Counted from the stretch's first letter, positions 6,250-37,203 are shown. The stretch is 64,000 nucleotides of DNA from Deltaproteobacteria bacterium (GCA_022601195.1 JAHZIX010000006.1:16629-80628); one strand, 5' to 3'. Notes: generated by a model not told the origin, from the sequence alone. Translations and numbers: made by a program.

Positions 6250-6264
6250 GGAGAGCTGAGAATC

Positions 6265-11138: not shown

Positions 11139-11160
11139 ACAGGCTGCATGATCGGGTGGT

Positions 11161-13433: not shown

Positions 13434-13491
13434 GGCAGGCCTATTCCGTTAGTAGCAGATGCTCTCGCCGCGGCAATTTTCAGATCAGGCC

Positions 13492-20008: not shown

Positions 20009-20056
20009 GGTACCCGCGGATCATGGCACATTTGCCTTCTGCTACACTCGCCCGCC

Positions 20057-21466
20057 ATGAAACTCAGTGTGTTGATTCCCGTGTACAACGAGCGCTATCT
20101 CGTGGCAGAGCTGGTGCGCCGAGTCTTGGTGGCACCGCTTCCAGAAGGGGTCGGACGGGAGATTATCATCGTCGATGATGGCTCCCGGGACGGTACTGTG
20201 GAAGTGGTCGCGAAGATGGAGAGCGAGCACCCTGACCAGATTCGTTTCATTCAGCACGAAAAGAACCAAGGCAAGGGTGCCGCGGTTCGGACTGCGATTC
20301 GCGAGGCCAGCGGCGATTTCGCCATCTTTCAGGACGCCGACTTGGAATACGATCCCCGCGACTACGAGCGACTCCTGGAGCCTCTTTTGTCCGGTCAGGC
20401 GGATGTGGTCTACGGCTCCCGCTTCCTTCCTTCTCAACGTCGCCGTGTTCTCTATTTTTGGCACAGCCTGGGCAACCGCTTCCTCACCCTTCTGTCCAAT
20501 ATGTTTACCAATCTCAATCTCACCGACATGGAAACCTGCTACAAGGTTTTTCGCACCGAGGTCCTAAAGACGATCCCCATTCGCAGTAACGATTTCGGCC
20601 TCGAGCCGGAGATCACCGCCAAGGTTTCCAAGCGGGGGCTGCGTCTCTACGAAGTTCCCATTAGCTATGACGGGCGAACCTATCTGGAAGGCAAGAAGAT
20701 CGGTTGGAGGGATGGCTTACGGGCCCTCTACGTGATCCTCAAGTATCACTTCATCGACGATCTCTACGATGAGAAAACCGGCCATGCGATCCTCTCGGAC
20801 CTGTCTCGGGCGCACCGGTTCAATCGTTGGATGGCAGACATCATCCGCCCCGAGTTGGGCCACTCAGTGCTCGAAGTGGGAGCTGGAATCGGCAATCTCA
20901 CCTCCCAGCTACTGCCTCGGGAACGGTACATCGCTAGCGATTTCGACGATCTTCACCTCGATGTCCTGCAAAATCTGGCCATGAATCGGGTCGGCCTCGA
21001 CGTCCATCGTCTCGATGCCTCAGAGGCCGAGGGCTATGCAGGCTTTCGGGGCGATATCGACTCTATAGTCTGCCTCAATGTTCTCGAGCACATTCCCCAA
21101 GCGGCGGCCTCGTTGAAGAATTTTTACGATTCCTTGGCCCCAGGGGGCCGAGTGATCATCTTGGTGCCTCAGGGGAAATGGCTCTTCTGTCCTTTGGACG
21201 AGGCTTTGGAGCACGTCAAGCGCTATTCGCCCCAGGAGCTGCGAGAGGAACTGGAGGCAGCGGGTTTCGAGGTGGAAAAGGTCCGTCATTTCAACCGCAT
21301 CGGAGTGATCGGCTGGTTCTTGAACGGCAAATTGCTGCGTCGGGTTCAGCTGGCCAAGATTCAGCTGAAGATTTACGACTCCTTGGTGTGGCTCTGGCGA
21401 GGCATCGATCGGTTCTTACCGTGGCATGGACTCTCGGTCATCGCCGTGGGCCGCAAGCCGGAATAG
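20057..21466 (+). CDS. GT2 polyprenyl-phosphate sugar synthase (ArnC/DPM1/GtrB-like) fused to C-terminal class I SAM methyltransferase domain
   Basis: The N-terminal MKLSVLIPVYNE...IIVDDGSRDGT...IFQDADLEYDP...VVYGSRF matches the DPM1/ArnC family. C-terminal residues ~260-469 carry SVLEVGAGIGNLTSQLL...SIVCLNVLEHIPQ...GGRVIILVPQ (MTase motifs I and III). Confidence 0.8.
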   Translation: MKLSVLIPVYNERYLVAELVRRVLVAPLPEGVGREIIIVDDGSRDGTVEVVAKMESEHPDQIRFIQHEKNQGKGAAVRTAIREASGDFAIFQDADLEYDPRDYERLLEPLLSGQADVVYGSRFLPSQRRRVLYFWHSLGNRFLTLLSNMFTNLNLTDMETCYKVFRTEVLKTIPIRSNDFGLEPEITAKVSKRGLRLYEVPISYDGRTYLEGKKIGWRDGLRALYVILKYHFIDDLYDEKTGHAILSDLSRAHRFNRWMADIIRPELGHSVLEVGAGIGNLTSQLLPRERYIASDFDDLHLDVLQNLAMNRVGLDVHRLDASEAEGYAGFRGDIDSIVCLNVLEHIPQAAASLKNFYDSLAPGGRVIILVPQGKWLFCPLDEALEHVKRYSPQELREELEAAGFEVEKVRHFNRIGVIGWFLNGKLLRRVQLAKIQLKIYDSLVWLWRGIDRFLPWHGLSVIAVGRKPE

Positions 21467-22846
21467 TCGCCGTCTCGAAGTTTCCAGGCCGGCGGCGGCG
21501 TAGAGACAGAGGATCGGCGTAATGGGAACGCGAAATCGGTGGTAGGACTCCGGGCCGGCAGAAATGAGTACCAGATAAGCGGCGACTCCCCAGGCACAAA
21601 GGTCGAAGACTTCGACCCGGCGGTGGCGAAGGGATGTCCACCACCAGCGGGCTCCACCCCAGTAGAGGACCGCCAAAAAGGCCAGCAGTACCAGAGCGAC
21701 CAGAAAGCTCATCGATCGTTCTAGAACCCACCGCCTCAGGTAGTCCCTCGGCTTCAAGCGAAACAGATCTCCCAGCGGTCCGGAGCTGGGAATGGGAATG
21801 CCGAGCAACCGCATCACGGTGTGTTCACCGGTTCCCCCGAGGGTTGCCGCCATGCCCACCAGCTGCATTTTCGCGACTTCTGCCGGATGCTGAGCCAAAA
21901 TGGCTAGACCTTCTTCCTTCCACCGTTCGGTGAGCTCTTCTTCAGTGAAGTCACGGGTTTCCGGATGAAGCTCCCGGTACCAACCCTTTCCCAGCTGATG
22001 GCGGGCTTCCTCGAGGCTGATGCCATCTCGCAAGGAGATGACTTTGGCGCCTCGGAAGAACAACAGATCCAAGCCGACGATTTGGCTGATATCGCCGCTA
22101 CCGGTGAGGCGATAGTTGCGCAGTTGCCAGCCTCCCAACAGTCCCACTACGGGAATAAGGAAGGCCAAGAGAGCCGCGCAGGTCTTTTGAGGCGAGAGAT
22201 GGCGCCGCCACGCTGCCACCAGGATCCAGCCGGCGACAGCGGGCGCCAAGTAGTAGCTGATCGGCCTCACCAAGGTCGCCACGGCCAGCAACAGGCCGAT
22301 GCCGCCGGCCCACAGAACCCCCCGATTTCCCTTGGCAAAACGGAGGGCGCAAAACAACATGGCAACCATGAGGAATGCGAAGAGGGTCTCGGTGAGTAGA
22401 AGGAGCGAGTGGGAAAAAGAGGCTGCATCGAGGGTGAGAAGGCCCGCGGCGGCGATTCCCACCGGTGTGGAGAAACGCTCTTGGGTGAGGCGAAAAAGAA
22501 GCAGTATCGTTGCCAGGCTAAGGAGGATCTGCCAGGCGATACCCGCTGCTGGTCTTTCTCCTGCCAAAGCATAGGCGGGAGCCAGAAAAATCGGGTAGCC
22601 GGGTGTGCGACGAGTCTCCGGGACGTTGGGGCGGTCGGCGGACACGGAGAACCTTCCCGCTTGCAACAGAGAGCGGGTGGTCTCGTGATAGGCGACCGAG
22701 TCGGTGTAGACGAAACGGGCCGGGTCCTGGGTCACCACGACCCCCCACACAAGAACCTTGAGAACTGCCGAAATGGCCAGCAGCCCCAACAGGCATTTGG
22801 GCAAGCCTCCCCTGGGCAGTTTCACTGGGTTACCCCTCCTCGGCAT
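21416..22846 (-). CDS. GT-C-fold glycosyltransferase, ArnT (GT83)/PMT-like
   Basis: The first periplasmic loop FVYTDSVAYHETTRSLLQ aligns with the ArnT TDETRYAEISREML motif (T-D-x-x-x-Y-x-E-x-x-R-x-x-L), and there are more than 10 TM helices. The probable start is at Met34 (MPRRGNPVKL); the ORF extends to 22945. Confidence 0.7.
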   Translation of the reverse strand: MPRRGNPVKLPRGGLPKCLLGLLAISAVLKVLVWGVVVTQDPARFVYTDSVAYHETTRSLLQAGRFSVSADRPNVPETRRTPGYPIFLAPAYALAGERPAAGIAWQILLSLATILLLFRLTQERFSTPVGIAAAGLLTLDAASFSHSLLLLTETLFAFLMVAMLFCALRFAKGNRGVLWAGGIGLLLAVATLVRPISYYLAPAVAGWILVAAWRRHLSPQKTCAALLAFLIPVVGLLGGWQLRNYRLTGSGDISQIVGLDLLFFRGAKVISLRDGISLEEARHQLGKGWYRELHPETRDFTEEELTERWKEEGLAILAQHPAEVAKMQLVGMAATLGGTGEHTVMRLLGIPIPSSGPLGDLFRLKPRDYLRRWVLERSMSFLVALVLLAFLAVLYWGGARWWWTSLRHRRVEVFDLCAWGVAAYLVLISAGPESYHRFRVPITPILCLYAAAGLETSRRRLFRLAAHGDDRESMPR

Positions 22847-23970
22847 TTCCCCTCTTCGGCGGCGAGGCGCAAGACTTTTTCGACTCTTCCGCCGGCTACC
22901 TGCCAATTGAGATCCGACTCGTAGCGTCTGCGGCTGTCGATACACAACCGGTGATAGCGCTGCGGTTGGGCCATCAAGCGAGCGATGGCTTCGGAAAAAG
23001 CTTCCGCCATGGCCCCGGCGGGGAGAACCACGCCGGAGGTACCGTTCTTCACGGAAGTAGCGATGCCTCCGACATCTCGGGTCACGACCGGGAGGCCAAA
23101 GGCTGCAGCCTCGGCGGTGACGATAGGAGAGGGGTCGAAGCGAGCTGGGTGAAGCAACAGATGCGACCTGCGGTAGAGCTCTAGGTAGGTCTCGAGCTCT
23201 TGAGATCGGCTCTTTCGAAACGGGCCCACAAAGCGAATATGCTCCTCATCGGATCCCGAAAGCCCACAGATCGTCAACCGAGTGGGGTTGCCGGAGCGGT
23301 TCAGCTGTCGAGTCGTCTCCATGGCGATATCGATACCTTTGCGGTGGAAGTTCCGGCCCACGGTGAGGAGCTCCAAAGGCTCTGCCAGGGACCGCGGAGG
23401 GGGAGCCCCATCGGGAACCTTGTCTTGGGGCAACGCCGAGGGATTGGGAAAGGTATGAATACGGCGCGCATCGAAGCCGTAGTCGCGAGCCAAGCCTTCG
23501 GCGGACCAACCACTATGGGTGATCAAGTGGGAGCAGCGGGCAAAGGCGCGATGTTCCTGCCAAATATTCAGTTTCATGGCCAAATCTCCGAACTCCTCAT
23601 ATCCACTTTGGTAGCCACGGAAACTGGTGTCCAAGCGGAAGACGCAAGGGGTAGAGCCGCGGTAAAAAACCAACGATGGCTGAAACAGAGTGAACACGAC
23701 ATCTGCTTTGGCTGCCTCTTCGGCCCGGTTCAGCCCCGCTGATGCCCGCCGGGTCAGGCTGTGGGGGAACTTGGCGTATCGCTTCTTGATCCCTCGCTGG
23801 TAAAGGCGTTTCAAGACTCTCTCCCAGGCGCTGGGTGGGTGTCTAAAGGGCCCGACGAGACTCATGTCATGGCCTCGTTCCGCCAGAGAACGATAGAAGT
23901 TGAAGTCGGCGCCGCTCGCAGCGTCCGGGTCTCTGGGGTCGTGGCGATAGGCGGAATAGAGGATTCTCAT
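22822..23970 (-). CDS. Glycosyltransferase family 4
   Basis: 382 aa. HLLLHPARFDPSPIVTAEAAAFGLPVVTRDVGGIATSV is a GT4 C-domain motif. Confidence 0.8.
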   Translation of the reverse strand: MRILYSAYRHDPRDPDAASGADFNFYRSLAERGHDMSLVGPFRHPPSAWERVLKRLYQRGIKKRYAKFPHSLTRRASAGLNRAEEAAKADVVFTLFQPSLVFYRGSTPCVFRLDTSFRGYQSGYEEFGDLAMKLNIWQEHRAFARCSHLITHSGWSAEGLARDYGFDARRIHTFPNPSALPQDKVPDGAPPPRSLAEPLELLTVGRNFHRKGIDIAMETTRQLNRSGNPTRLTICGLSGSDEEHIRFVGPFRKSRSQELETYLELYRRSHLLLHPARFDPSPIVTAEAAAFGLPVVTRDVGGIATSVKNGTSGVVLPAGAMAEAFSEAIARLMAQPQRYHRLCIDSRRRYESDLNWQVAGGRVEKVLRLAAEEGKCRGGVTQ

Positions 23971-23973
23971 GAA

Positions 23974-24792
23974 TCACTCGTCGCCGGAGCCCCGGGGGGA
24001 CGAGGGTGCCCGGGCGGCGACCAACAAGTCGATCGCCTTGTTCGGTGTGGTTTCCCGTTGGGTTCTCTTCCAGAGTTTCCAAACGAACGGCAGGCGGTTC
24101 ATGTATTTGCGCAGCTTGAGGCGGGCTCCCTCACAGCGTCTCCCGTGGCCGCGAAATTCCAACACCTCGAAGCCGCTGCTCTCGAGGAGAGCCGACAGAC
24201 GTTCCTGGGAATAGTGGCGAAAGTGATGGGTTGGCATTTTCAGGTTCCAGCTCGGGGTGGTCAGAACCAGAAGCCCACCGGGAGCGAGAACTCGCCGAAT
24301 CTCCTCCAGGAGAGCTGTTTCCACCTCATCGGGCACATGCTCGATGACTTCGATGGCGGTGATTAGGTCAAAACTGCCAGCTTCGAAGGGTAGACGGTTG
24401 CCATCGTAGGCACGAAAGTCGATTTCAGGGGTGATCAATCTGGCAAAAGCGATGGCCCGTTCGCTGATGTCAACGCCGAAGGCACGGGTATCCCCGGCCA
24501 GATGGTCGAAGACATCGGAGGTCCAACGTCCGTCACCACAGCCGAAGTCCAGGTAGCGACCGATCGACGGCGGCCCGTTGCGGGAGATGAGCTCGAAGAT
24601 GATGCGTTGTTTTTCCTCACGGAAAAAGCGCGGCAGCCTCTGCTCCGGGAACCAGTGGTAGGGCAAGCGGTACTGTTTTTCTTGCTCGTCGATAGGGGAA
24701 GTTGGGGGTTGAGATGTCACAGCGTCCCCTCCCTGGGCAGCCGGGATTCGATCTCCAGAAGCAGTCGCTCGGTTGCGATCTTCCATGTCCAA
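23974..24792 (-). CDS. Class I SAM methyltransferase (Methyltransf_11-like)
   Basis: YLDFGCGDGRWTSDVF is motif I. ...FDLITAIEVIEHVPD...PGGLLVLTTP follows. The start is uncertain because the first ~25 codons overlap the upstream GT4 C-terminus. Confidence 0.75.
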   Translation of the reverse strand: MDMEDRNRATASGDRIPAAQGGDAVTSQPPTSPIDEQEKQYRLPYHWFPEQRLPRFFREEKQRIIFELISRNGPPSIGRYLDFGCGDGRWTSDVFDHLAGDTRAFGVDISERAIAFARLITPEIDFRAYDGNRLPFEAGSFDLITAIEVIEHVPDEVETALLEEIRRVLAPGGLLVLTTPSWNLKMPTHHFRHYSQERLSALLESSGFEVLEFRGHGRRCEGARLKLRKYMNRLPFVWKLWKRTQRETTPNKAIDLLVAARAPSSPRGSGDE

Positions 24793-25994
24793 TTCTCCTC
24801 GTAGCGCCGCCGTGAAGCTCGAGCCAGGTGACGATACAGGTCGGGGGTCTTGACGAGACCAGTGACGGCGTCGGCAAAATCTATCGCAGAGCTTCCCAAA
24901 GGGAGAAGCAGGCCGGTTTCTTCGTGGAGGACGATCTCATTGACGCCATCCGTGTCATGGGTGATCACCGGGAGGCCGTGAGCCGCAGCCTCCGCGAAGG
25001 CCAGGCCGAAACCTTCTGCGGCGGTAGGAAGGACGAGGAGCTGACATTTTGCAAAGAGCTCCCCGAGGCGAGCTAGATCTTTGGGTCGATTCTTGTCCAA
25101 GAGTCCGTAGTAGACCACCGACTCGTCCTGCGACCGGTCTGGAGACTGGCCTTGAGACGGGCCCTGAAGCGAGGCTTGAGATACGCCTTGGGGTTCGCCG
25201 CCCGCTGCATGCAGCACTGCTTCGTACCCTTGGCGCCGAAGCACCCGACAGCACTCGACGGCCAAGGGGCCTCCTTTGCCGAGCCAATCTTTGCCCAGGA
25301 AGAGCAGGTCGAGACGAGTTTTGCCGGTCGATCCTTTGGGTAGATCCGTGACGGACCGAGTTCTTGAGAGTTCAGCTCCCGGGTCGTCGACGTTGGCACC
25401 GAAGGGAACCACTGCGAGGCGCTGGGCAAGATCCGGGTCATAGGCTAGGGCCTCTCTCATCTGCCATCGTCCGGGAAAAATACTGATCGCTGCCTTTGCC
25501 AAACCAGCGCCGATGGTTCTCAAGCTGAAAGCCGTGCTCAAGGGAGAGAGTCCGGCCAGACGCGGGTTGGTACGTTTTGCTGGTTCCTTGGAAATCATGC
25601 TGTCGGTGTAGAGAACGACAGGGCGCTCTGTTGGACAGTAGGCTGCCAGGCCATAGTCGGAAGTGAGCAAGAAGTCGTAGTCCAACCCGGCCAGGCTCGG
25701 CCCGAGGCTACGTCCCAGTCGGCGGGCAAATAGTGGATCTTGAAAGGTTCGGTAGCCCGAGCCTTGGCGCCGGCTAAGTCCCTTGAAGATGCGAGTGGCA
25801 ACGGGGAGCTCGACCTCTCCGGGCTGCAGAAAATGTACCGTATGACCCTGTCGTTCGAGCTCTTGGCCGAGGAAATACCAGGTGCCGGAGCCGCGGCGAA
25901 CGTCGCGAGCATCGAAGAGGTTCGCGTAGGCGATGCGCAGAGTCAAGGTTCGTAGAGCAGGCGGTAGGTGAGCGTGTTGATTCTCTTGAGCCAT
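24717..25994 (-). CDS. Glycosyltransferase family 4
   Basis: LLVLPTAAEGFGLAFAEAAAHGLPVITHDTDGVNEIV is a GT4 C-domain motif. A Gln/Ser/Pro low-complexity insertion is present. The probable start is Met64 (MAQENQ); the ORF extends to 26183. Confidence 0.8.
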   Translation of the reverse strand: MAQENQHAHLPPALRTLTLRIAYANLFDARDVRRGSGTWYFLGQELERQGHTVHFLQPGEVELPVATRIFKGLSRRQGSGYRTFQDPLFARRLGRSLGPSLAGLDYDFLLTSDYGLAAYCPTERPVVLYTDSMISKEPAKRTNPRLAGLSPLSTAFSLRTIGAGLAKAAISIFPGRWQMREALAYDPDLAQRLAVVPFGANVDDPGAELSRTRSVTDLPKGSTGKTRLDLLFLGKDWLGKGGPLAVECCRVLRRQGYEAVLHAAGGEPQGVSQASLQGPSQGQSPDRSQDESVVYYGLLDKNRPKDLARLGELFAKCQLLVLPTAAEGFGLAFAEAAAHGLPVITHDTDGVNEIVLHEETGLLLPLGSSAIDFADAVTGLVKTPDLYRHLARASRRRYEENWTWKIATERLLLEIESRLPREGTL

Positions 25995-26971
25995 CGCCGC
26001 AGATATCGGTTGCTGACCCGGGGCCGGGAGTGGCTCTGCTGGTCTGTTGCCTCGTTTTTGGCAGGCAATCCTGAGGCGTCGAAGAGGCGAGGGTCCACAT
26101 CGATTCCCTCCGGCATGGCTGCAAAGCTTGGGGCAGCGTTGCCGAGGTGATGAATGCGGTAACCGGTGGTGGAGAGACGCCAAAACCCAAGAGCATCCAC
26201 TCGCTTCTCCAGCACCGGGCTATAGACCGGGTCATAGTACTCACCGGGCTCCGTCACTTGAAGGGGCAGGACCTGTTCCAACACCTTGCGTCGGGTGGTG
26301 AATTGAAAATCTTGAGCCGAGACAAAGGCACTGACCCCTCGCCGGGTGATCTGTACATCCTGACGGTTCAGCAGTCGACTCGCGTACTCCTCGGAACTGG
26401 ATCCAAGGCTGATGCGGTGGGCTTCGATATGAGCCTCGGGGATAAGGTCCGGACCCTCCTGCAAGGTGAGGTCTTCGCTTCGGCGTACCGCCTCTCGGGT
26501 GCCGGAACAATGTCGGTCTGCGGTATCGGCCGTGGGCAGGGCTGTGACCTGGCCAGCTTCCGGGAAGGCATCGAGAACCGCCAGGGTCTCATCGAGCCAG
26601 CCGGGTAGGAAGAGGACGTCGCTATCGGCGAAGGAGATGATCTCTCCTGGAGCCACCTGCAGCAGAAAATTGAGCGCTCCCAATTTGCGCAGATTGTGTT
26701 GCGAGAGGATCAGGCATTGAATGACCCCTTGTCGTCGCAGTTCCAGAAGGTAGTCCTGAATTTCGGTACAACTGCCATTGTCGAAGACATAGAGGTCAAA
26801 GGGGTGATCGGTATTTTCTTTCAGGCTGCGGAAGAACAGTCGAAGCACGGAGAAGCTCTCAGCCCAGAAGCCCTCTAGCACCGGCACATGGACGATGGTG
26901 GTGATGGTGATTCTCTGGGCCTTGGGTTGCTCGTGGAGCCACTTCATAGGGTTCTGGCCAACTCGTGACAT
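25943..26971 (-). CDS. Glycosyltransferase family 2 (GT-A)
   Basis: FDLYVFDNGS and ISFADSDVLF (DxD) are present. 342 aa. Confidence 0.6.
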   Translation of the reverse strand: MSRVGQNPMKWLHEQPKAQRITITTIVHVPVLEGFWAESFSVLRLFFRSLKENTDHPFDLYVFDNGSCTEIQDYLLELRRQGVIQCLILSQHNLRKLGALNFLLQVAPGEIISFADSDVLFLPGWLDETLAVLDAFPEAGQVTALPTADTADRHCSGTREAVRRSEDLTLQEGPDLIPEAHIEAHRISLGSSSEEYASRLLNRQDVQITRRGVSAFVSAQDFQFTTRRKVLEQVLPLQVTEPGEYYDPVYSPVLEKRVDALGFWRLSTTGYRIHHLGNAAPSFAAMPEGIDVDPRLFDASGLPAKNEATDQQSHSRPRVSNRYLRRWLKRINTLTYRLLYEP

Positions 26972-28261
26972 TCAATCACCTCGTCCGTGAGCTTGGTGCC
27001 ACTGATGATGCACCAAAAAGCTGCCATGGCGTTGGCCGATGGGGGCCTGTCCACTGCCGAAGGCATTGCCTTCCACCAGATTGAATTGGAAGGCCTCTTT
27101 GACATTGTCGGAGAACTCTCCATTCACGGAGCAACCTAAAGAGACGGTGTAGACGCCAGCCGCTAGGGGAATCGAAGGCATTTGGCAGTGGATTTTTCCT
27201 TCGGGCGGCAACGTTTCGAATCGTCCGACATCAGTGAAGTGAGTCGATAGAGTAAAGAGTAGATTGCCGATGTGGTCAGCGACGTGTATTTGGGCCAAGA
27301 CTTTGATCAGAGGTTTGCCGTCGGTGGAGCGGTAGCCGATCTCGAAGACACCCGAATCGCCGGAGCGTAGGGAACCGCTTTGGGTACCGTCCGGGTCGGT
27401 CAGTCGAATGCTTTGGAAGCGCATCGGGCCCGCCCCACGGCGATCGGTCCGATCTCCTAGAGGTATTGCTAGCTGAGTGGAGACCTTGGCCATGTATTGG
27501 GTGATGACTTCGTCGGTAGGACCGTAGGCCTCCAAACGGCCCCTTTCCAGCATTAAGGTGGTCGGGCAAAGGTGGGAAATAGCACCTAGATTGTGACTGA
27601 CCAAGAGCACGGTGCGACCTTGTCCAGCCACCTCTCCCATTTTACCCAGGCATTTTTTTTGAAAGGCGGCATCTCCCACTGCCAGCACTTCATCTACCAG
27701 TAGAATCTCCGGTTCCAAATGAGCAGCTACGGCAAATGCTAGCCGTAGGTACATGCCGCTCGAGTAGTGCTTGACCGGAGTGTCGATGAACTTTTCGAGC
27801 TCCGCGAAGTCAACGATCTCCTCGAACTTCTTCAGAATCTCGCCCCGGCCCATGCCGAGGATCGCCCCATTCAGAAAGATATTCTCTCTACCGGTGAGCT
27901 CCGGGTGAAAGCCGGTGCCGACCTCGAGCAGGGAGCCGACTCGGCCTCGGATTCGCGCTAGCCCGGCGGAAGGCTCGGTGATACGTGAGAGAATTTTGAG
28001 CAGTGTGCTCTTGCCTGCTCCATTGCGGCCGATAATACCCACCACCGCCCCTTCCGGAATGGCGAAAGAGATTTCCTGGAGGGCCCAGAAACTTTCGTGG
28101 AGGTCCGCTGCTCCGGTCGCATGACCCTTGAGTAAGTTTCCTACCCGCCGAAACGGGCTCGCTGCTAGCTCGACGAGCGTTTCTCGCAAAGTGCGGTACC
28201 GCTCCTGCTTGCCAATGAAGTAGCGCTTGCCGAGATCTTCCGCGAGGATGGCGTCATTCAT
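26972..28261 (-). CDS. wzt: ABC transporter ATP-binding protein Wzt with C-terminal carbohydrate-binding (Wzt_C-like) domain
   Basis: GRNGAGKSTLLKIL is Walker A, YSSGMYLRLAFAVA is the signature motif and LLVDEVLAVGD is Walker B. A ~165-aa C-terminal extension (FQSIRLTDPDGTQSGSLRSGDSGVFEIGYRS...) follows. The start MNDAIL lies 2 nt after the wzm stop; the ORF track extends spuriously to 28585. Confidence 0.9.
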   Translation of the reverse strand: MNDAILAEDLGKRYFIGKQERYRTLRETLVELAASPFRRVGNLLKGHATGAADLHESFWALQEISFAIPEGAVVGIIGRNGAGKSTLLKILSRITEPSAGLARIRGRVGSLLEVGTGFHPELTGRENIFLNGAILGMGRGEILKKFEEIVDFAELEKFIDTPVKHYSSGMYLRLAFAVAAHLEPEILLVDEVLAVGDAAFQKKCLGKMGEVAGQGRTVLLVSHNLGAISHLCPTTLMLERGRLEAYGPTDEVITQYMAKVSTQLAIPLGDRTDRRGAGPMRFQSIRLTDPDGTQSGSLRSGDSGVFEIGYRSTDGKPLIKVLAQIHVADHIGNLLFTLSTHFTDVGRFETLPPEGKIHCQMPSIPLAAGVYTVSLGCSVNGEFSDNVKEAFQFNLVEGNAFGSGQAPIGQRHGSFLVHHQWHQAHGRGD

Positions 28262-28263
28262 GA

Positions 28264-29160
28264 TTAGACGACATCCGCAAAAGTCTTTTCCATGCGCCGA
28301 AAGTACAGCAAGCCGGTCACCAGGAGCACCAGGGTTGCGATCGAAGAGGTCAGCACCAGACTGAATATCGGGGCGTCGAGTCCGAGCAGAGCCCATCGGA
28401 ATCCCTCGACGACACCGACCATGGGGTTCAATGCATAGATCCACACGGGGATGCCCATCTCCTCGAGCTTGGGCGCGACCTCTGCGGTGGAGTAGATCAC
28501 TGGCGTGACGAAAAGGAGGAGCTGGGTAAAGAAAGGGATGACATAGCGGATATCTCGGAATTGGACGTTCAAGGCAGAAAGCCAAAGGCCTGCCCCGAGT
28601 GCGCTACCGAAGGCCAGGAGAGCCAGGAACGGCAACCAAACAACCATCGCCGTGGGGCGGGTGCCGTAGTAAGCCATCATGGGGAAGAGAATCAGAAACG
28701 CTAGAACGAAATCAACGGCGGGAGCAAGGGCTGAAGCGATCGGGATGGCGAGACGAGGAAAATAAACTTTCTTGATCAGGTTTTGGCTTCCCACCAGGCT
28801 ATTGGACGATTGGGTCAAGCCGAGGGAAAAGAAAGTCCAGGGGAGTAGTCCCGCATAGGAAAAGATGGGGTAGGCGATTCCCTCTGGCCCCAACTGGGCC
28901 ACCCGCCCGAAGAAGATGGTGAACACGACCATGGTCAATAAAGGCTGGAGAATCGCCCAGGAGGCACCAAGGACCGTCTGCTTGTATCGAACCTTGATGT
29001 CCCGCCACACCAAGAAGTAGAGCAGGGCTCGGTAGTCCCACAACTCGCCCAACCGCAAGGAAACCCAGCCGGAAGAGGGCTGGATGAGGGTCTCGGCAAT
29101 GGCCGAGATACGCGGTTGATTATCCATGAGCTGCGGCTTACTTTCGGGAGGCAAAATCAA
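28264..29160 (-). CDS. wzm: ABC-2 type polysaccharide export permease Wzm
   Basis: LWDYRALLYFLVWRDIKVRYKQTVLGASWAILQPLLTMVVF is the canonical Wzm/KpsM/TagG N-terminus. Six TM helices. Confidence 0.85.
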   Translation of the reverse strand: MILPPESKPQLMDNQPRISAIAETLIQPSSGWVSLRLGELWDYRALLYFLVWRDIKVRYKQTVLGASWAILQPLLTMVVFTIFFGRVAQLGPEGIAYPIFSYAGLLPWTFFSLGLTQSSNSLVGSQNLIKKVYFPRLAIPIASALAPAVDFVLAFLILFPMMAYYGTRPTAMVVWLPFLALLAFGSALGAGLWLSALNVQFRDIRYVIPFFTQLLLFVTPVIYSTAEVAPKLEEMGIPVWIYALNPMVGVVEGFRWALLGLDAPIFSLVLTSSIATLVLLVTGLLYFRRMEKTFADVV

Positions 29161-29216
29161 AGAAGGCGTCCGCCATGTAGCGGACGCCTCATTCGTACAA
29201 GCTCTCTATCGAGGGC

Positions 29217-30092
29217 CTACGGGGCCGATGGTGAAACCGGCGGATCGTCTCTATTCGAAATAACGATGGCGGGGGGAACCAGCAAGGCCGGAATGAGAAT
29301 TTCCTTCTTTTTCCACCAGGCGATGACGCAAGCGCGACAGTGGTCGTCCGCGCGCAAGATGTCGAGGGGGTTGATTCGACTGACGATGCCATCGCAGAGC
29401 CAGTGGAAAACCCGTTCTCCCCGTTCCCATTCAGCGGTTTCACCGATGGTGAGGTTCTCGGATTCGCCTTCCTGCTGCTCGGTCAACTCGACTTCACAGT
29501 CGTCCCGGACCTCGACTACTTTCATGTCCGATCGAGCTATGCGTTTGCCGGCGTCGTCGTACACGGTCCCGAAGTACTCGGCTGGCTCGTTTTCGAGCCC
29601 TTCGAGCCATTCCTGGAGAGTCGCGTCATCGAGAGCTTCTAGCCACTCCCTCGGCTCATTTCGACCTTGAGCAGAGCGCTCTTCGATGAGCTCTTGGTCG
29701 AGGTCATCGTTGGGGTCTCGGTCATCGACTGTGACCTTGGTGCGCCACCATTCCGCCCAACCTTCGTCGGGGTTGTCGTCGTCGTCGAAATCCCCCTCGA
29801 GATCCCGTTCTTCAAGTTCTTCGTCCTCGGCTTCCGGTAAGACAGCCCAATACCGGCCACCACCACTGGGCCGTGCAACAACGTAGTAGAAATCCTCGAC
29901 TTCCTCGTGGAGGCGTCGGAAATATATGCGGACAGAGCTTCCTCCGGGAGCATTCTCTACGGTCGCGGTCACTAGGCCGTTCTCGGCGATTGGTAGGCAT
30001 TCAGCCTGATCGACCGAGACGGAAACCTCCTGCGCGGCCAGCAGTTGGCTTCCCATGAAGGCCAAGATTGTCATCAATAGGTACCGATGCAC
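29217..30092 (-). CDS. Secreted acidic hypothetical protein
   Basis: Signal peptide MHRYLLMTILAFMGSQLLAAQE. An Asp/Glu-rich middle region follows, then Cys pairs (HCRAC) and a hydrophobic C-terminal segment. No family recognised. Confidence 0.4.
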   Translation of the reverse strand: MHRYLLMTILAFMGSQLLAAQEVSVSVDQAECLPIAENGLVTATVENAPGGSSVRIYFRRLHEEVEDFYYVVARPSGGGRYWAVLPEAEDEELEERDLEGDFDDDDNPDEGWAEWWRTKVTVDDRDPNDDLDQELIEERSAQGRNEPREWLEALDDATLQEWLEGLENEPAEYFGTVYDDAGKRIARSDMKVVEVRDDCEVELTEQQEGESENLTIGETAEWERGERVFHWLCDGIVSRINPLDILRADDHCRACVIAWWKKKEILIPALLVPPAIVISNRDDPPVSPSAP

Positions 30093-30183: not shown

Positions 30184-31740
30184 CTAGCTACCAGATTCGC
30201 TGAGTATCTTCTCTATATAGTCTTCCACGAACGAAGTTCGTTGCAATTTTGGCAAAGCTCGTTCGAGGGCTCCTTCTGCTGCTACCGGATCGCCGGATTC
30301 GTAGAAAGATATAGCCATAAAGAAAAGCAGGTTTGGACGGTTGTCGCCGGGGTCGCCGCCGCGGCGAAAATAGGTTGCTGACTTCTCCCAAAGAGAGCCT
30401 CGATAGGCAATCTCGGCTACCAAGTGTTGAGCTCTTCGAGATTGAGGAAAAGCGTCGGCTACAGATTGAGCCAGAGTCAAAGCCGGTTCAAGGTCGGCGA
30501 CCTTCTTGGCGTTGGACAAGAGGCTTCGCGCCTCTACCAGGCGGGCCTCATCTTCGGAGCTGAGATTCTTGGGAGCCGGTGAGGTTCGGGGAGCCGGGGG
30601 CGTCAGCTCTGTATTTTGGGATGCTGATGTAGGTCTACGCCCGCCACCCTTTTCCTCAGCAGCTCTTCTCGCAACATCCTCGCCCTCGAGACGAGGATCG
30701 TCCGGGACTCTTTGGGTCGCGACTTGGCTGGCGGCGGGACTTTTCTGGTCCATTGAAGCCGCAGGTGGGTCGAAAGAAGGCAGGTGGTTTTCGTCCCTAG
30801 CTACTGGCTCTGAGGCGAGGTCAGCAAGATCTTCACCGGATGCCTCAAGTTCTTCTTGTCGCTGGGCCTCTTGCCTTTTGAGACCCTTCTCAATGCGCCG
30901 GCCTAGGCGGGTAAACTCTCTTTGAGAGCGCACCGATGGTTCGAGGGCTAAAAGGGTGGCATTCGCCTGTTCCCAGGATTCCATTTCGGTCAGGCAACTG
31001 ACTAGCGGGGAGGCAAACCGGGCCTGGAGCCGTGTCTCGGGACAGATTGTGAGGTCGGTGATGGCTTCGGTGCACCGTTGCATTTCGGCCAGAGTTTGAC
31101 CGCGAAGGCAATGGGCTTGCTCCGACTCTTTGCCTTCAGAGATGAGCTGGTCTAACAAAGGGAGGGCCTCCTGCCTCAGCCCTTCTTCTAGGGTCAGCTT
31201 CGCTAACTGAAGGCGCCACTTCGGTTCTTCCGGTTCGATTTGAGCTCGTTCCGAGAGCGCTTCGCGTCGTTGAGATTTGGGTAGAGCAGCAATGCGTTCG
31301 ACCGCCTTCTCTTTGGCTAGATCCGCAAAGGCAGGAAAGGTCGAGAGCTCCGCTTCTGGGACGAGGTTTCTGACCGTTTCGACGAAGCTACTCTGTAGGG
31401 ATGGAGGGAAAGAATTCTTGGAGTAGGCCTCGAACTGATTTTCGATTTCCATCAGTTTGCGAAATGTGGACCGAAACTCATCCGGATCCCCAGCCCTAGC
31501 ATGGGTCAGAGAAAGTCTGGCCAAACCTTCTGCCAGGAGGTTTGGTTCATCCAAAAATCCGAAATTCGCCAACCGGAGCAGATCTTGAGCTTCTTGGAAG
31601 TCACCACGCTCAGAGGCGGCAATGCCATCTCGTAGGAGGTTTGTGTAGAAGGGGTCTGCTGCTCTCGAGAGGCCAGGAACAGCGAAGCAGAGAAGAAGAA
31701 AGACCAAGAGGAGCTTGCTCAAAGAGGATCGAGAGCCCAT
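30184..31740 (-). CDS. Secreted TPR-repeat protein
   Basis: The probable start is at the signal peptide MGSRSSLSKLLLVFLLLCFAVPGLSRA (Met38 of the ORF). The helical repeat content includes ...DPVAAEGALERALPKLQ.... Confidence 0.5.
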   Translation of the reverse strand: MGSRSSLSKLLLVFLLLCFAVPGLSRAADPFYTNLLRDGIAASERGDFQEAQDLLRLANFGFLDEPNLLAEGLARLSLTHARAGDPDEFRSTFRKLMEIENQFEAYSKNSFPPSLQSSFVETVRNLVPEAELSTFPAFADLAKEKAVERIAALPKSQRREALSERAQIEPEEPKWRLQLAKLTLEEGLRQEALPLLDQLISEGKESEQAHCLRGQTLAEMQRCTEAITDLTICPETRLQARFASPLVSCLTEMESWEQANATLLALEPSVRSQREFTRLGRRIEKGLKRQEAQRQEELEASGEDLADLASEPVARDENHLPSFDPPAASMDQKSPAASQVATQRVPDDPRLEGEDVARRAAEEKGGGRRPTSASQNTELTPPAPRTSPAPKNLSSEDEARLVEARSLLSNAKKVADLEPALTLAQSVADAFPQSRRAQHLVAEIAYRGSLWEKSATYFRRGGDPGDNRPNLLFFMAISFYESGDPVAAEGALERALPKLQRTSFVEDYIEKILSESGS

Positions 31741-32002
31741 TGTGGTGGAAGAACTCCTAGGAAACCTTCCTATCTGGTAGCGCCCACGGCAGGACGACGG
31801 TCGCTTCTTGCAAGGACCGGTCTCTGAATGGGATTCGGGCAACTGAATCATTTATCGACTTTTTCCACTGGGTGGCCTGATATTTCCAAAATCGAAGCTT
31901 CGACCCGTAGAATTTATAGCAAGAGCCGTACCAAGGACTAATTTCTCTGCTCTTCTCAATTTTTTTAATTGGCGGTGTGCCATCTTACTGGCCTCCGCCT
32001 AG

Positions 32003-32725
32003 CTAGGGTATGGGTTGATTGTTCACGACCCTCGTAGGGTTCGTCGTGGTCAACAATGTGGCTACTTCTGGGCTCCAGCGGTCCGCTACATGGTCGTAGG
32101 CTCGCAATAGCCCTGGGGGGCGACGCTCAATTCCGTGGCAGTCGCTGGCGATAAAGTGAGCGAGGGATGTCTCGATGAGCCGCCGGGCCGATTCCCGTGG
32201 ACGACGCCCGAATTCTCCCGTGAGGCTCATCGCAGTAATTTGTAGTCGTGCGCCCAGGTGAACCAGGTTTTCCAATCGGGGTAAATCCCCAGCTAGCCAT
32301 GGCAGCAGCTCCGGGTGCGCAAGAATTGGCCTCCAGCCGCCAACTACCAACTCATGGACGATATGTTCCGGCTCCGGCCCTGTTCCGGACCGCGAAAATT
32401 CGATCAGCAGATATTGGGTGTCTGCGATGGGAAGAAAACCGCCGCCGGGCCAAGATTCGGCTTCTGACAACCATTCCGAATCGACTCGGATCTCTCCGCC
32501 AGGCAACAGAGTGGGACTCTCCCCAATCTCCTCTTGAAGGCGGTTGCGGAGCTCCGTCAAGCTCTGCCGGTCTCCATTCCACCAGCGAGGGTGACGCTGG
32601 TGGGGAGTCGCAACCATAGCGGTACAGCCCTGTTCACCAGCGAAACGAACCATGGCGACGGCTTCTTCGAAGCTATCGGCGCCATCGTCGATCCCGGGGA
32701 GGATGTGGCAATGAAGATCGATCAT
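32003..32725 (-). CDS. PHP-family protein-tyrosine phosphatase (CpsB/YwqE type; Wzb functional analogue)
   Basis: MIDLHCHILPGIDDGA N-terminus and ...IASDCHG... metal-binding residues. 240 aa. Confidence 0.9.
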   Translation of the reverse strand: MIDLHCHILPGIDDGADSFEEAVAMVRFAGEQGCTAMVATPHQRHPRWWNGDRQSLTELRNRLQEEIGESPTLLPGGEIRVDSEWLSEAESWPGGGFLPIADTQYLLIEFSRSGTGPEPEHIVHELVVGGWRPILAHPELLPWLAGDLPRLENLVHLGARLQITAMSLTGEFGRRPRESARRLIETSLAHFIASDCHGIERRPPGLLRAYDHVADRWSPEVATLLTTTNPTRVVNNQPIP

Positions 32726-35016
32726 TAGGCCGCTGAATCGGTGCGCGAGTCAGCCACGTCGTCCACATAGCTTTCGTAATACCGGTGTTTGCGCGCATAG
32801 CTGGCTCGACTGGAGTTGGCCCGGAAGCCATTGAGAACCGCCCCGAGCACTCTAATGTCTGAGAAAAGAAGGCGGTCGCGGCAGGCTCGGGCATCTTCCC
32901 GAACCAAAGAGCCCGCTCGGCAGCACAGCACGACGCCATCGGTCATAGAGCCGATGAGGGTGGAATCAGTCACCGCCAGGGTAGGGGGCGTGTCGACGAT
33001 GACAAAGTCGAACCGTTTGCGGGCTTGGAGGAGAAACTCCCTCATCTTGTCTGAGGACAAGAGCTCCGACGGATTGGGAGGAATGGGGCCGGAAGGGCAG
33101 AGATAGAGATTCTCGACCACCGTGGGGAACAGGATGTCCTCCGGTTCTGCGGTACCGGTCAGATAGCTCACCAAGCCGACTCGATTCGACTGCTTGAGCA
33201 ATTGGTGCTGCCTTGGTTTCCGCAGATCACCATCGATGATCAGAACATTTCGGTCTAGTTGGGACATGACCACGGCGAGGTTGGAGGCGGTGGCGGTCTT
33301 TCCTTCCCCAGCTTCTGCAGAGGTCACGGCGATCATCCGAAGCTCTTCGGCGGTAGAGAGTAGTAGCGCCGTTCGAAGGGATCGATACGCCTCAGACACC
33401 GCCAGACGGGGCTGTTCGTGAGGGAGTAGCTCGATCTTCTGTGGATCGTTCTTGCTCCGTCGTTCTCGCCAACTTTTGGAGGCCTTGGCGGGTGCCGCTC
33501 CGTAGCCATAGGCTTTGGCGCCGCGATAGCCATAGGACCGGCCAGCCTCGAAGATATCGGGTATGACCGCGAGAGTGGGGAGCCCCATGACGCTCTCCAA
33601 CTCTTCACTGGTCTTGATGGTGCGGTCCAGAAGCTCTAGAAGAGCAGCGAGCCCTACGCCGAAGAAGAGTCCCATCGCCATGCCCAGGGTGAGGTTGCGG
33701 CGCAGCGATGGCCGAAAGGGCCCTCCCGGAACCAAGGCTGTATCCACGATCCGAACGTTGGATGCACGGGTGTCTTGCAGTCTCGCAGTAACCGCAGTTT
33801 CCGACTGCCGTTGCAGCAGCTGGTTGAGCAGCTGGCGGCGGGTATTGACTTCGTCTTCGAGATTGATGAACTCGAGTCGGCTCGACTTTTGGTCGAGGGT
33901 TTTGTCCTTGAGGTTGCTGATTTCGGCTTCGAGAGCTCGCTTCTGCCGCTCCGCCGCTTGAAACTCACCCCTTGCAGCTTCTTGAGCCTGAGTCGCGCGG
34001 TCTTGGATCAGCCGGTTCAGGCTCTGACGAGCTTTGTCGATGCGTGCCTTCAGATCTACCATCTCGTGCCATTCGGGTTTGTAGACGGCGAGCTTCGATT
34101 GATAGTCCTGTTCCAGGGTTCGTAGGGCACTGCGCTGCTGCGAGACTTCCGTGCTGGCTACCGATTCAGCGAGAGCCTCAGCGGGGGTCGTCAGAAGCTC
34201 GCGATAGTAGGCTTGCTTTTGGATGTGTAGATTTTGCGCTTCCGAGAAATCCTGATTGAGAGCCTTCAGGCGCTGCAAAGTGGTGTTGGACTCCGGGTCC
34301 AGCGCCACGATGTCACTGCGGCGGCTCACTTCTTGAAGGAGGCCTTCTTTCTCGGCAATTTCTGCCCGAAGCTTCTCGATTTCAGCGCCAAGAAAAGTCG
34401 ATGCCTTGCCGGCGGTGGCGCCTCGGTATTCGATTCCCATGTCGATAAAGGCTTGGGCGAAACCGTTGGCGAGAAGAGCAGCCTTGTGGGCCGAGTCGGC
34501 TGTGTAGATCAGCTCTACTAGTTGGGTCTCTCTAACTCGCCGCACGGTCAGGCCGCCGAGAATTGAGCCGGCCAGTCCTGCTACGGCGGCTTGATCGGCG
34601 GCGGCGGTAGCTTGCTGATCTTGGCCATTGAGGGCGGTGGGAGAGCCCCCGAAAGCCGGATCCGTGGTCAGGCGCAGTTGGCGCACCACCTGTTCCGCGA
34701 GACCCCGGCTCTGAAGGAGCTTCTCTTGGGTCGGGTAGAACTCCATATTCCAGTAGTTTTCTAGCCAGGGGTTCTGGGTGCCGATGAGCGGGGTCAGGGA
34801 ACGCCGCTCAATCTGAACGACAGCTCTTGTTTGAAACTCCTCTGGACTAATCACGAACTTGGCGAAGGCAGCCCCTAGGCAAAGGACGACTGCGACCAGA
34901 ATTAAGCGCCAGTGGCGAAGCAGCTTGAAAAGGTAGTCTTTGACGTCGAACTCCATGTCCGGCGTCTGGGAAAAGCCATCCTGCTCCGTTTGCAGGAACG
35001 AATCGGAGTGACTCAA
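32725..35016 (-). CDS. wzc: Polysaccharide co-polymerase / BY-kinase (Wzc-like tyrosine autokinase)
   Basis: Two TM helices flank a long coiled-coil periplasmic region. Walker A is TSAEAGEGKTATASNLAVVM, followed by LIIDGDLRKP and DFVIVDTPP. The C-terminal Tyr cluster is YARKHRYYESY. Confidence 0.9.
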   Translation of the reverse strand: MSHSDSFLQTEQDGFSQTPDMEFDVKDYLFKLLRHWRLILVAVVLCLGAAFAKFVISPEEFQTRAVVQIERRSLTPLIGTQNPWLENYWNMEFYPTQEKLLQSRGLAEQVVRQLRLTTDPAFGGSPTALNGQDQQATAAADQAAVAGLAGSILGGLTVRRVRETQLVELIYTADSAHKAALLANGFAQAFIDMGIEYRGATAGKASTFLGAEIEKLRAEIAEKEGLLQEVSRRSDIVALDPESNTTLQRLKALNQDFSEAQNLHIQKQAYYRELLTTPAEALAESVASTEVSQQRSALRTLEQDYQSKLAVYKPEWHEMVDLKARIDKARQSLNRLIQDRATQAQEAARGEFQAAERQKRALEAEISNLKDKTLDQKSSRLEFINLEDEVNTRRQLLNQLLQRQSETAVTARLQDTRASNVRIVDTALVPGGPFRPSLRRNLTLGMAMGLFFGVGLAALLELLDRTIKTSEELESVMGLPTLAVIPDIFEAGRSYGYRGAKAYGYGAAPAKASKSWRERRSKNDPQKIELLPHEQPRLAVSEAYRSLRTALLLSTAEELRMIAVTSAEAGEGKTATASNLAVVMSQLDRNVLIIDGDLRKPRQHQLLKQSNRVGLVSYLTGTAEPEDILFPTVVENLYLCPSGPIPPNPSELLSSDKMREFLLQARKRFDFVIVDTPPTLAVTDSTLIGSMTDGVVLCCRAGSLVREDARACRDRLLFSDIRVLGAVLNGFRANSSRASYARKHRYYESYVDDVADSRTDSAA

Positions 35017-35858
35017 AAGAAAGACTCCTTGACCACCACTACGTCACCTTCTCGAAGGCGGAAATCTTCTTCCTTGCCAGCGACGATGCGTTTGTAGTCG
35101 ACGCCGATCTCCTGGCCGGTAGAGTCGTGGGTCTGGCCGGCTCGTTTGACGACGATTTTTGGAGAGGCCCGATCCGTCAACCCGCCAGCTCGAGCGATGG
35201 CTGCGAGAAGGGAGACGCGCTCACTGCTCTTGAAGGTCAGGGCACCTGGTCGTTCAACGGCTCCGAGGCAATACACCGTCACGTCGACCGCAGCGGAGAC
35301 GTTGATGAGGTCGTTGGCGAAGATGGGAATATTGACTTTGGGGTCGGCTCGGACCATGAGGTCGTCTACAGCGATCTCCACTTGGCTCGAGAGCCCGTTC
35401 TCCGCTTGTCGCCGGACATAGATCACGGTGCCATGATTTTCGGCAAGGCCTCCCGCGGCGGTGAGAGCCTCCAGTAGAGTCCAGCGACCGGAAAAGCCTA
35501 GATCTCCCGGTTTAGTGACCGCTCCGATCACCGAAATGGGCTTGGAGCGATATTCACGCAACTGTACGGACACGGAGGCGCGCTGGAAAAAACGTTCTTC
35601 CAACCTCTCCTTCAGTCGTGCTTCCAACTGCGCCGCTGTGAGGCCGAGCACGGAAACATCGCCAACCGGTGGGAAGTTGATGTCTCCGTCGGTAGAAACG
35701 CGGTGCTCACTGTTGAGGTTGGGCGCCTCGAAGACCCGAATCTCGACGAGATCCTTGGGGCCGATTCGATAATTGTCGACATTCTGAGCCGTGGCGTCCG
35801 GGAGGGCCGCTGCTAGAAAGAAGACACAAGAAACCCAGTACAACAGTTTTCTCATCAT
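35013..35858 (-). CDS. wza: Outer-membrane polysaccharide export protein, Wza-like OPX (short form lacking C-terminal OM helix)
   Basis: Signal peptide. Poly_export motif NYRIGPKDLVEIRVFEAPNLNSEHRVSTDGDINFPPVGDVSVLGLTAAQLE. SLBB repeats. At 281 aa it is about 100 aa shorter than E. coli Wza. Confidence 0.85.
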   Translation of the reverse strand: MMRKLLYWVSCVFFLAAALPDATAQNVDNYRIGPKDLVEIRVFEAPNLNSEHRVSTDGDINFPPVGDVSVLGLTAAQLEARLKERLEERFFQRASVSVQLREYRSKPISVIGAVTKPGDLGFSGRWTLLEALTAAGGLAENHGTVIYVRRQAENGLSSQVEIAVDDLMVRADPKVNIPIFANDLINVSAAVDVTVYCLGAVERPGALTFKSSERVSLLAAIARAGGLTDRASPKIVVKRAGQTHDSTGQEIGVDYKRIVAGKEEDFRLREGDVVVVKESFF

Positions 35859-37191: not shown

Positions 37192-37203
37192 TTCTCCTCC
37201 GAG

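Follow-up and report, generated by a model that had tools for sequence, protein, structure and literature searches.

The locus analyzed here lies in a 64,000-nt window of a metagenome-assembled genome (MAG) labeled Deltaproteobacteria bacterium (GCA_022601195.1 JAHZIX010000006.1:16629-80628), itself part of a 424-kb MAG scaffold (ENA ERZ23491219, DHAR22-1 scaffold_6). It holds a Wzm/Wzt ATP-binding cassette (ABC) exporter whose ATPase subunit, Wzt, carries a C-terminal carbohydrate-binding domain (CBD). A long glycan cluster follows wzt, and on the other side of wzm stands an export block of ~12 genes (29217-47255) encoding, in order, a polyprenyl-phosphate hexose-1-phosphate transferase (PGT), a beta-helix protein, an FG-GAP protein, a Wzy_C protein, unk575, a second Wzy_C protein, a predicted outer-membrane (OM) barrel, an outer-membrane polysaccharide export (OPX) protein, Wzc, a PHP phosphatase, a TPR protein and unk291 (Table 1). 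We favor, with moderate confidence, the view that these are two neighboring pathways, each of which makes a surface polymer of its own. An original prediction, made before these comparisons, had proposed either two polymers from one locus or a hybrid pathway; as an interpretation it is partly supported, with its hybrid branch less likely than its two-polymer branch.

Table 1. Features of the locus, in positions counted from the first nucleotide of the window.
Feature	Position	Strand	Evidence
Rest of the ABC-dependent glycan cluster	475..21466	-	Pfam, NCBIfam
Wzy_C protein inside the ABC cluster, ligase candidate	475-1980	-	Pfam
Glycosyltransferase (GT) 2-methyltransferase (MT) fusion, sole + strand gene of the glycan cluster	20057-21466	+	
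GT2, GT4, MT, GT4, GT-C (PMT_2)	21416..26971	-	Pfam
wzt, ABC-transporter ATPase, 429 aa (nucleotide-binding domain + C-terminal CBD)	26972..28261	-	Pfam ABC_tran + Wzt_C
Wzt CBD, aa 259-429 (~170 aa)	26975..27487	-	Pfam Wzt_C core 27071-27448; AlphaFold model; Foldseek
Wzt nucleotide-binding domain, aa 1-258	27488..28261	-	Motif positions + ABC_tran Pfam match
wzm, ABC-2 permease, 287 aa	28264..29127	-	Pfam ABC2_membrane 57.8 bits; ~6 transmembrane segments
Terminator/attenuator-like hairpin between unk291 and wzm	29153..29190	-	Terminator scan
unk291, secreted acidic 291-aa protein, last export-block gene	29217..30092	-	Signal peptide
TPR-repeat protein, N-terminal anchor	30184..31851	-	Weak TPR Pfam matches; one transmembrane/signal segment
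PHP-type (CpsB/CapC) tyrosine phosphatase	32003..32725	-	Pfam CpsB_CapC 166 bits
Wzc-type polysaccharide co-polymerase (PCP) 2a with fused bacterial tyrosine (BY) kinase	32725..35016	-	Pfam Wzz + GNVR + AAA_31
Short class-3 OPX, 281 aa, Poly_export + 2 SLBB	35013..35858	-	Pfam
Predicted OM beta-barrel partner of OPX, 445 aa (429 aa from 37191)	35902..37239	-	Structure model
Wzy_C-family membrane protein a (polymerase or ligase)	37204..38664	+	Pfam Wzy_C 62.8 bits; ~10 transmembrane segments
unk575, anchored family-less protein between both Wzy_C genes	38511..40238	-	Position conserved
Wzy_C-family membrane protein b	40746..42170	+	Pfam Wzy_C 64.9 bits; position conserved
WbaP/WcaJ-like PGT	45759..47255	-	Pfam Bac_transf 212 bits

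The matches that identify these genes all lie well above curated thresholds, which argues that the identities are not a product of chance. The wzt gene starts at the ATG at 28261, as placed by two independent gene callers and >100 homologues, and the ENA and Logan records contain the identical 429-aa product; the longest open reading frame (ORF), 537 aa from a TTG (26972-28585), reflects only the longest TTG-started frame. The full set of nucleotide-binding domain (NBD) motifs that had been claimed for Wzt can be read from the sequence: Walker A (GRNGAGKST, aa 78-86, 28004-28030), the signature (YSSGM, aa 166-170, 27752-27766), Walker B (ILLVDE, aa 186-191, 27689-27706) and the H-loop (VSHN, aa 221-224, 27590-27601), and the ABC NBD, of which a Q-loop is a further defining element, is matched by Pfam ABC_tran (aa 61-192, 74 bits). 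This NBD + Wzt_C architecture is very common (>8000 database clusters, most phyla). Among PDB sequences, Wzt matches full-length Wzt of Aquifex aeolicus best (8dku/7k2t; aa 54-377, E 1e-65), in an alignment that extends into the CBD and ends at Aquifex residue 350. Tyr256, in the hinge region, is invariant across 60 homologues and adjoins the position aligned with Aquifex Tyr233, whose role has been described (PMC9445017).

The C-terminal extension, put at ~165 aa in the original prediction, has a Pfam Wzt_C match at aa 272-397 (41.1 bits, cut-off 30.4). An AlphaFold model of Wzt aa 250-429, built with 59 homologues as input, shows an all-beta domain behind a linker helix (mean pLDDT 90.6, pTM 0.85). 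Its first 17 PDB matches in Foldseek are all Wzt CBDs (6o14, 8dky, 2r5o, 5hno, 5hnp; E 7e-9 to 9e-7), with unrelated beta-sandwiches ranking below them and starting about two orders of magnitude weaker; target-normalized TM-scores are 0.67-0.77 for entries of isolated CBDs and 0.27-0.30 for chains of full-length transporters. Because these top 17 matches are all Wzt CBDs, the extension is, as modeled, a Wzt-type beta-sandwich (jelly-roll) CBD, and the comparison with the O9a and O12 domains that had been proposed as a check thus bore the prediction out. Specifically, the Aquifex WzmWzt transporter (7k2t, 8dku, 6o14, 8dky) is the closest in sequence for both subunits and has the same NBD + CBD architecture, and its CBD (6o14) is the top fold match (E 7e-9, target-normalized TM-score 0.76), but the two CBDs are only ~19% identical. 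The CBDs of Escherichia coli O9a (2r5o) and Raoultella/Klebsiella O12 (5hno/5hnp), likewise at the Wzt C-terminus, share the fold (TM-scores 0.67-0.70, E 3e-8 to 9e-7) and are only 15-19% identical to this one. In the monomer model a C-terminal strand (model aa 171-174) stands detached after a long coil, an arrangement compatible with a strand-swapped CBD dimer.

By sequence comparison the domain appears to be a rare variant: it is 87 and 66% identical to the CBDs of two close relatives and 47 and 43% to those of two others, and beyond these four the closest among 80 genome-representative loci is 31% identical. The candidate capping enzymes in the window are six genes with methyltransferase domains and a NeuB/CMP-transferase pair, the latter in place of genes for 3-deoxy-D-manno-octulosonic acid (Kdo); the locus yielded neither a WbdD-like kinase-methyltransferase nor a GT99 beta-Kdo transferase. 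The closest solved relative, Aquifex Wzt, recognizes a 3-O-methyl cap (PMC9445017). Because of this precedent, and because each of the four loci with a related CBD has an MT no more than three genes away from wzt, our best guess for the cap is a methyl group, although clusters of this kind often carry MTs. A nonulosonic-acid cap, proposed from co-occurrence, was rejected: NeuB occurs in 17 of 80 Wzt loci and is not tracked by CBD similarity, 16 of the 17 having no detectable CBD similarity to this Wzt (Mann-Whitney p 0.16). Transfer of the Aquifex 3-O-methyl-mannose pocket residues (PMC9445017) was also dropped, as the alignment ends at residue 350 with identity of ~19%.

The permease gene, whose product has the Aquifex Wzm permease as its closest PDB sequence (6m96_B, E 9e-19), ends with a stop at 28264, leaving 2 nt before the wzt ATG at 28261, the adjacent spacing that had been predicted and that is expected of a translationally coupled permease. 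The upper bound of 29160 given for the pair was right for the longest ORF, which starts at a TTG there, but that codon lies inside the U-tail of a hairpin; the true wzm start is probably the ATG at 29127, because gene calls for the source records and for two relatives give the 287-aa product. Wzm/Wzt is a bona fide ABC exporter of the O-polysaccharide (O-PS) type. The hairpin has a GC-rich 12-bp stem, a 4-nt loop and a CUUUGAUUUU tail, and the 92-nt intergenic stretch that bears it folds at -34.7 kcal/mol (z -3.8). Two relatives, whose Wzt proteins are 92 and 77% identical to this one, keep the stem 5' of wzm but differ in loop and flanks; another locus (L136) has a different strong hairpin at the same junction position, and some soil loci have weaker ones. 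We regard this hairpin as a marker of the boundary between the two modules.

On the far side of wzt, the run of five genes from GT2 to GT-C starts 0 nt after the wzt stop, and its order after Wzm-Wzt is kept in the relative with 77% Wzt identity (L083). Further left follow an MT, a UbiA-type prenyl-phosphate phosphoribosyltransferase, a GT-C-like protein, a CMP-sugar cytidylyltransferase and a NeuB fusion, together with further GTs and MTs, a deacetylase, a GNAT protein and a Wzy_C protein; in total the cluster encodes ~11 GTs and six MTs. The ~47-kb superlocus of the original prediction is real but larger than 47 kb, as the cluster continues for ~9 kb past the left window edge (L087 coordinates 11503-20246) through genes for a GT4, a CapK-like AMP-ligase, a GT2, an MT, an NTP_transf_5 protein and a DegT aminotransferase to a second Bac_transf PGT, so that two PGT initiators bracket the superlocus. 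Of the parts of an ABC-dependent O-antigen pathway, the ABC cluster, which can be regarded as self-contained, brings a PGT initiator of its own, GTs, MTs and other candidate capping enzymes, and the exporter, together with a Wzy_C protein as a candidate for the ligase.

Two groups of genes in this cluster stand out on their own account. The UbiA-family protein resembles decaprenyl-phosphate phosphoribosyltransferase, at scores below the NCBIfam cut-offs, and adjoins the GT-C-like membrane protein (both within 16312-19100, -); a second GT-C, of the PMT_2 family (21416-22945, -), lies near this pair. Such UbiA and GT-C genes suggest periplasmic decoration of a glycan from a polyprenyl-phospho-pentose donor. 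The NeuB-type nonulosonic-acid synthase (NeuB + SAF; 13492-15381, -) carries, fused to its C-terminus, a TIM-barrel of the xylose-isomerase-like kind (AP_endonuc_2), an extra domain seen on NeuB in none of the 17 NeuB-containing Wzt loci compared, and a PseF/NeuA-like cytidylyltransferase (15617-16315, -) adjoins it.

The three Wzy_C genes had been counted as components of a Wzx/Wzy-type pathway. This may hold for the two in the export block, but the third, at 475-1980, lies inside the ABC cluster and is more likely a ligase of the ABC-type pathway, because its homologues (36-41% identity) travel with Wzm/Wzt + NeuB loci in other phyla (Blastocatellia, Acidobacteriota, Heliobacteriaceae). Classification of the three proteins as WaaL, Wzy or O-oligosaccharyltransferase (O-OTase) yielded one weak NCBIfam match, of protein b to TIGR03097 (PEP_O_lig_1), and no PDB sequence matches. 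A different acceptor can be envisaged for the ABC-exported glycan: in Geobacillus/Paenibacillus S-layer glycan clusters, an ABC-exported glycan is linked to protein, and here, too, a PGT-initiated, methyl-capped glycan might be joined to a surface protein by an O-OTase of the Wzy_C family, with the Wzc/OPX block serving separately. Such a route would fit the initiation of the cluster by a WbaP-like PGT rather than WecA, its Wzy_C protein and many methyltransferases, a homologue of this Wzy_C protein in a Wzm/Wzt locus of Heliobacteriaceae (Firmicutes; L020), and the secreted FG-GAP and beta-helix proteins encoded nearby. However, neither an S-layer protein nor any feature specific to O-OTases was identified, the Wzy_C proteins are not assignable to ligase, polymerase or O-OTase by sequence, and O-antigen is the default in a diderm with OM machinery (OPX, barrel), so that we consider protein linkage very improbable.

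Turning to the export block, the PGT (388 bits against NCBIfam TIGR03025, cut-off 296) adjoins the housekeeping genes MTHFR/MetH both here and in L136 and is the initiator and outer boundary of the block. Wzc (173 bits against TIGR01007, cut-off 108) has a GEGKT Walker A motif and a C-terminal tyrosine cluster, with 4 Tyr among its last 30 residues. The WbaP-like PGT, Wzc, PHP phosphatase, OPX and three Wzy_C genes of the original prediction were thus all recovered with Pfam, but its description of the OPX as Wza-like has to be revised. Under the published OPX classes (PMC9603273; PMC9601211), a group 1 Wza is a class-1 lipoprotein with a Wza_C pore helix; the 281-aa protein encoded here has no Wza_C helix (Pfam) and, on reading of its sequence, no lipobox, and it scores below the cut-offs of the NCBIfam EpsE/EpsY-like and XrtA-export models. 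It is paired, moreover, with a predicted barrel. The model of the latter (pLDDT 79.8, ~18-20 strands) has 18-strand OprD/Occ barrels as its closest PDB folds (TM-scores 0.5-0.59); in Pfam it has only a weak BBP2_2 match and no family above threshold. The barrel gene lies directly 5' of the OPX gene in all relatives compared, a pairing kept in >15 loci. OPX and predicted barrel are therefore of the composite class-3 OPX/beta-barrel translocon type, as defined in the same two studies (PMC9601211; PMC9603273). Membership of the block in a PEP-CTERM/XrtA system was rejected, as all matches to XrtA-associated NCBIfam models fall below cut-offs and no exosortase was seen.

Other genes of the block are less easily named. 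No Pfam or NCBIfam family was found for unk291 or unk575. The former, very acidic (68 D+E against 27 K+R) and with a C-terminal hydrophobic segment, is always the last gene of the block; it stands 3' of PHP/TPR in L136, in L135 and in most of the soil loci that extend far enough, and the TPR-repeat gene also keeps its position in relatives. Wzy_C protein a is conserved in position in >15 loci. The product of unk575 is N-terminally anchored and, on reading of its sequence, helical-repeat-like, and its gene always lies between the divergent Wzy_C genes; as a candidate for a missing flippase it was rejected, being neither polytopic nor in possession of a transmembrane bundle. The FG-GAP and beta-helix genes stand between Wzy_C protein b and the PGT.

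Comparison with other loci shows that the two modules occur independently of each other. When metagenome contigs were scanned with Wzc as the anchor, 46 loci were obtained, ~20 of them long enough to show gene order. The order in soil loci (Wzc 47-55% identical) is WzyC_b, unk575, WzyC_a, barrel, OPX, Wzc, PHP, (TPR), unk291, and in all 13 related soil loci with at least 7 kb downstream of the export block no match to Wzm/Wzt was found; in the two whose downstream genes were scanned with Pfam, these are genes for 3'-phosphoadenosine-5'-phosphosulfate (PAPS) synthesis, CBM9, peptidase M23 and SIR2-TPR proteins. The loci with the next-most-similar CBDs have the order Wzm-MT-Wzt-FkbM-GT2(-sulfotransferase-NeuB), and neither OPX nor Wzc/PCP was found within their contigs; in one of them (L084, CBD 47% identical), an Opp peptide transporter lies upstream of the Wzm/Wzt cluster. 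Across genome loci with a CBD-bearing Wzt, Wzc lies within 10 kb in only 7 of 80.

Our preference for two polymers follows from this, because each module occurs alone elsewhere, because there are two initiators and the export block has Wzy_C genes embedded in it, and because CBD-bearing Wzt proteins are known for O-antigen-type glycans. The terminator-like hairpin, conserved and exactly at the module junction, and the ABC cluster's own Wzy_C protein further support it. In the arrangement that we envisage, the ABC cluster would be initiated by its own PGT just past the left window edge, and the ~11 GTs downstream of the exporter would complete the polymer on a polyprenyl carrier at the cytoplasmic face. 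The non-reducing end would then receive a cap, which the beta-sandwich CBD of Wzt would read, licensing export through the Wzm channel, and a Wzy_C-family ligase (candidate 475-1980) would join the exported glycan to lipid A-core or another acceptor. The export module, from PGT to unk291, would polymerize and secrete a different polymer of the exopolysaccharide (EPS) or capsule type. The analysis shows the gene identities, the fold of the CBD and the independent occurrence of the modules; that the cap is recognized, that the glycan is ligated and that the polymers are separate we infer.

By analogy, a precedent supports the same view. In E. coli E69 (O9a:K30, the prototype) and in Klebsiella, a group 1 cps locus adjoins a wzm/wzt rfb O-antigen locus (PMC6128206), and the present locus likewise has a Wzc/OPX/phosphatase module beside a Wzm/Wzt O-PS module, with a stem-loop after the export genes as in those cps loci (PMC3438125). 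Unlike in wzi-wza-wzb-wzc, however, the OPX here is short, class-3 and partnered by a beta-barrel, the phosphatase is PHP-type rather than Wzb of the low-molecular-weight protein tyrosine phosphatase type, the export block is without wzx and GTs, and the modules are co-directional with only a hairpin between them. The pairing of a short OPX with an ~18-strand barrel and a PCP is instead that of Myxococcus EpsY/EpsX and WzaX/S/B with MXAN_7418/3226/1916, and of Vibrio VpsN/VpsM (PMC9601211; PMC9603273), from which the locus differs in an OPX below the EpsY/EpsE model cut-offs, a barrel with only a weak BBP2_2 match and no wzx nearby. The original choice between two polymers and a hybrid was fair, although the two-polymer arrangement is already textbook knowledge from E. 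coli and Klebsiella and the modules occur independently.

Several observations nevertheless weigh against two separate polymers. The source is an uncultured MAG. Of the parts of a group 1-like pathway, the Wzc/OPX block has two Wzy_C proteins (putative polymerases), Wzc with its tyrosine cluster, a PHP phosphatase, an OPX and a Bac_transf PGT; a check of the flanking genome for wzx had been proposed, and no Wzx flippase (Polysacc_synt/MATE-like) was found among ORFs of at least 150 aa in the 64-kb window plus 10 kb to its left (~74 kb). No glycosyltransferase was found in the export block here or in any relative examined, and the block is therefore unable alone to make a polymer, which would have to be built by genes elsewhere. 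Export block and Wzm/Wzt are co-directional, and the order unk291-hairpin-wzm is kept in L135 (92% Wzt identity) and L083 (77%). In L136 (Wzc 62%, unk291 69% and PGT 67% identical), the whole block is followed by an epimerase, Wzm and Wzt, the CBD of which is no longer detectably similar to this one; this is a layout in which a variable, serotype-like region comes after a conserved one for export. As for the hairpin, its tail ends ~35 nt before the wzm ATG, so close that a separate wzm promoter would hardly fit, and stem-loops after wzc act as internal attenuators in the Klebsiella and K30 cps loci (PMC3438125); both points led us to reject it as proof of two operons. Finally, a Thermoanaerobaculia MAG (JBBDKM010000009.1, 250-21178; L007) joins barrel/OPX/Wzc and Wzm/Wzt on one strand, in the order TPR, barrel, OPX, Wzc, UDP-glucose dehydrogenase, epimerase, Wzt(CBD), pyruvyl transferase, GT4, Wzm, second Wzt, GT4s, with neither Wzy nor Wzx among the ORFs scanned.

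These same observations (the lack of wzx and of GTs in the block, the short gaps between co-directional genes, the adjacency conserved in L135, L083 and L136) speak for a hybrid, in which the capped polymer exported by Wzm/Wzt is passed in the periplasm to Wzc, the class-3 OPX and the barrel and secreted as capsule or EPS, its output tuned by the BY-kinase/PHP cycle; everything from ~37.2 kb leftwards would then be one system, with the hairpin as an internal attenuator. Wzc and Wzm also occur independently as neighbors in Acidobacteriota (L041), Omnitrophota (L064) and the Thermoanaerobaculia locus; with neither Wzy nor Wzx among its scanned ORFs, the last of these makes a stronger case than the window for a true hybrid of ABC and PCP-2a/OPX export. 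On the strength of genomic context, Schwabe et al. placed 14 of 453 pairs of short OPX and barrel in ABC-transporter pathways (PMC9601211). On the contrary, the export block does without Wzm/Wzt in at least 13 related loci and related Wzm/Wzt clusters do without OPX or Wzc, a U-tailed hairpin sits at the module boundary, and two embedded Wzy_C proteins and a PGT of the block's own would be needless for a glycan that is exported fully polymerized by an ABC transporter. Embedded Wzy_C genes and a kinase/phosphatase pair follow the logic of Wzy-dependent systems. Characterized CBD-bearing Wzt proteins serve O-antigen or S-layer glycans, and ABC-dependent capsules use a kinase-less, KpsE-type PCP-3. 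In view of these points we consider the hybrid unlikely, if worth keeping in mind.

A capsule system of group 2/3 does not fit the locus. Such KpsMT systems combine a KpsE-type PCP-3 without kinase, a KpsD class-2 OPX, KpsS/C beta-Kdo linker enzymes and an ATPase without CBD, whereas here the PCP bears a kinase, the OPX is class-3 and Wzt carries a CBD. Wzm scores 40.7 bits against the NCBIfam KpsM model (cut-off 300), and KpsS/KpsC-type families were absent from the general Pfam and NCBIfam matches, no search aimed at KpsS/C having been made.

If two polymers are indeed made, the locus is an example of two classical surface-glycan pathways side by side in an uncultured lineage; it would help to catalogue CBD diversity and would change no concept. 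The export block without wzx and GTs, including its two family-less conserved proteins, deserves annotation in either case. A hybrid, if true, would matter more. To our knowledge, no characterized system has a Wzt that recognizes a cap working together with a PCP-2a that bears a kinase and a pore of the composite OPX/beta-barrel type. In its most novel form, which we rate as unlikely, a cap-gated Wzm/Wzt would feed its finished, capped polymer to Wzc, the class-3 OPX and the barrel along a Wzx-free capsule/EPS route controlled by tyrosine phosphorylation, with the CBD, encoded downstream of the conserved export block, as a serotype determinant that varies between relatives. The window, L136 and the Thermoanaerobaculia locus are concrete starting loci for the question of ABC-Wzc/OPX coupling.

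Some further features of the window and its source deserve mention. The named homologues of the barrel and the export block come from Acidobacteria/Thermoanaerobaculia MAGs, and the NCBI label of this MAG, "Deltaproteobacteria bacterium," may be unreliable. Beyond MetH and a few kb from the EPS block, the stretches 52030-54646 (+) and 59186-62015 (+) encode an MBOAT + AlgX-like SGNH pair (a polysaccharide O-acetylation module) and two paralogous PilZ-Cds6_C proteins, possible receptors for cyclic di-GMP.

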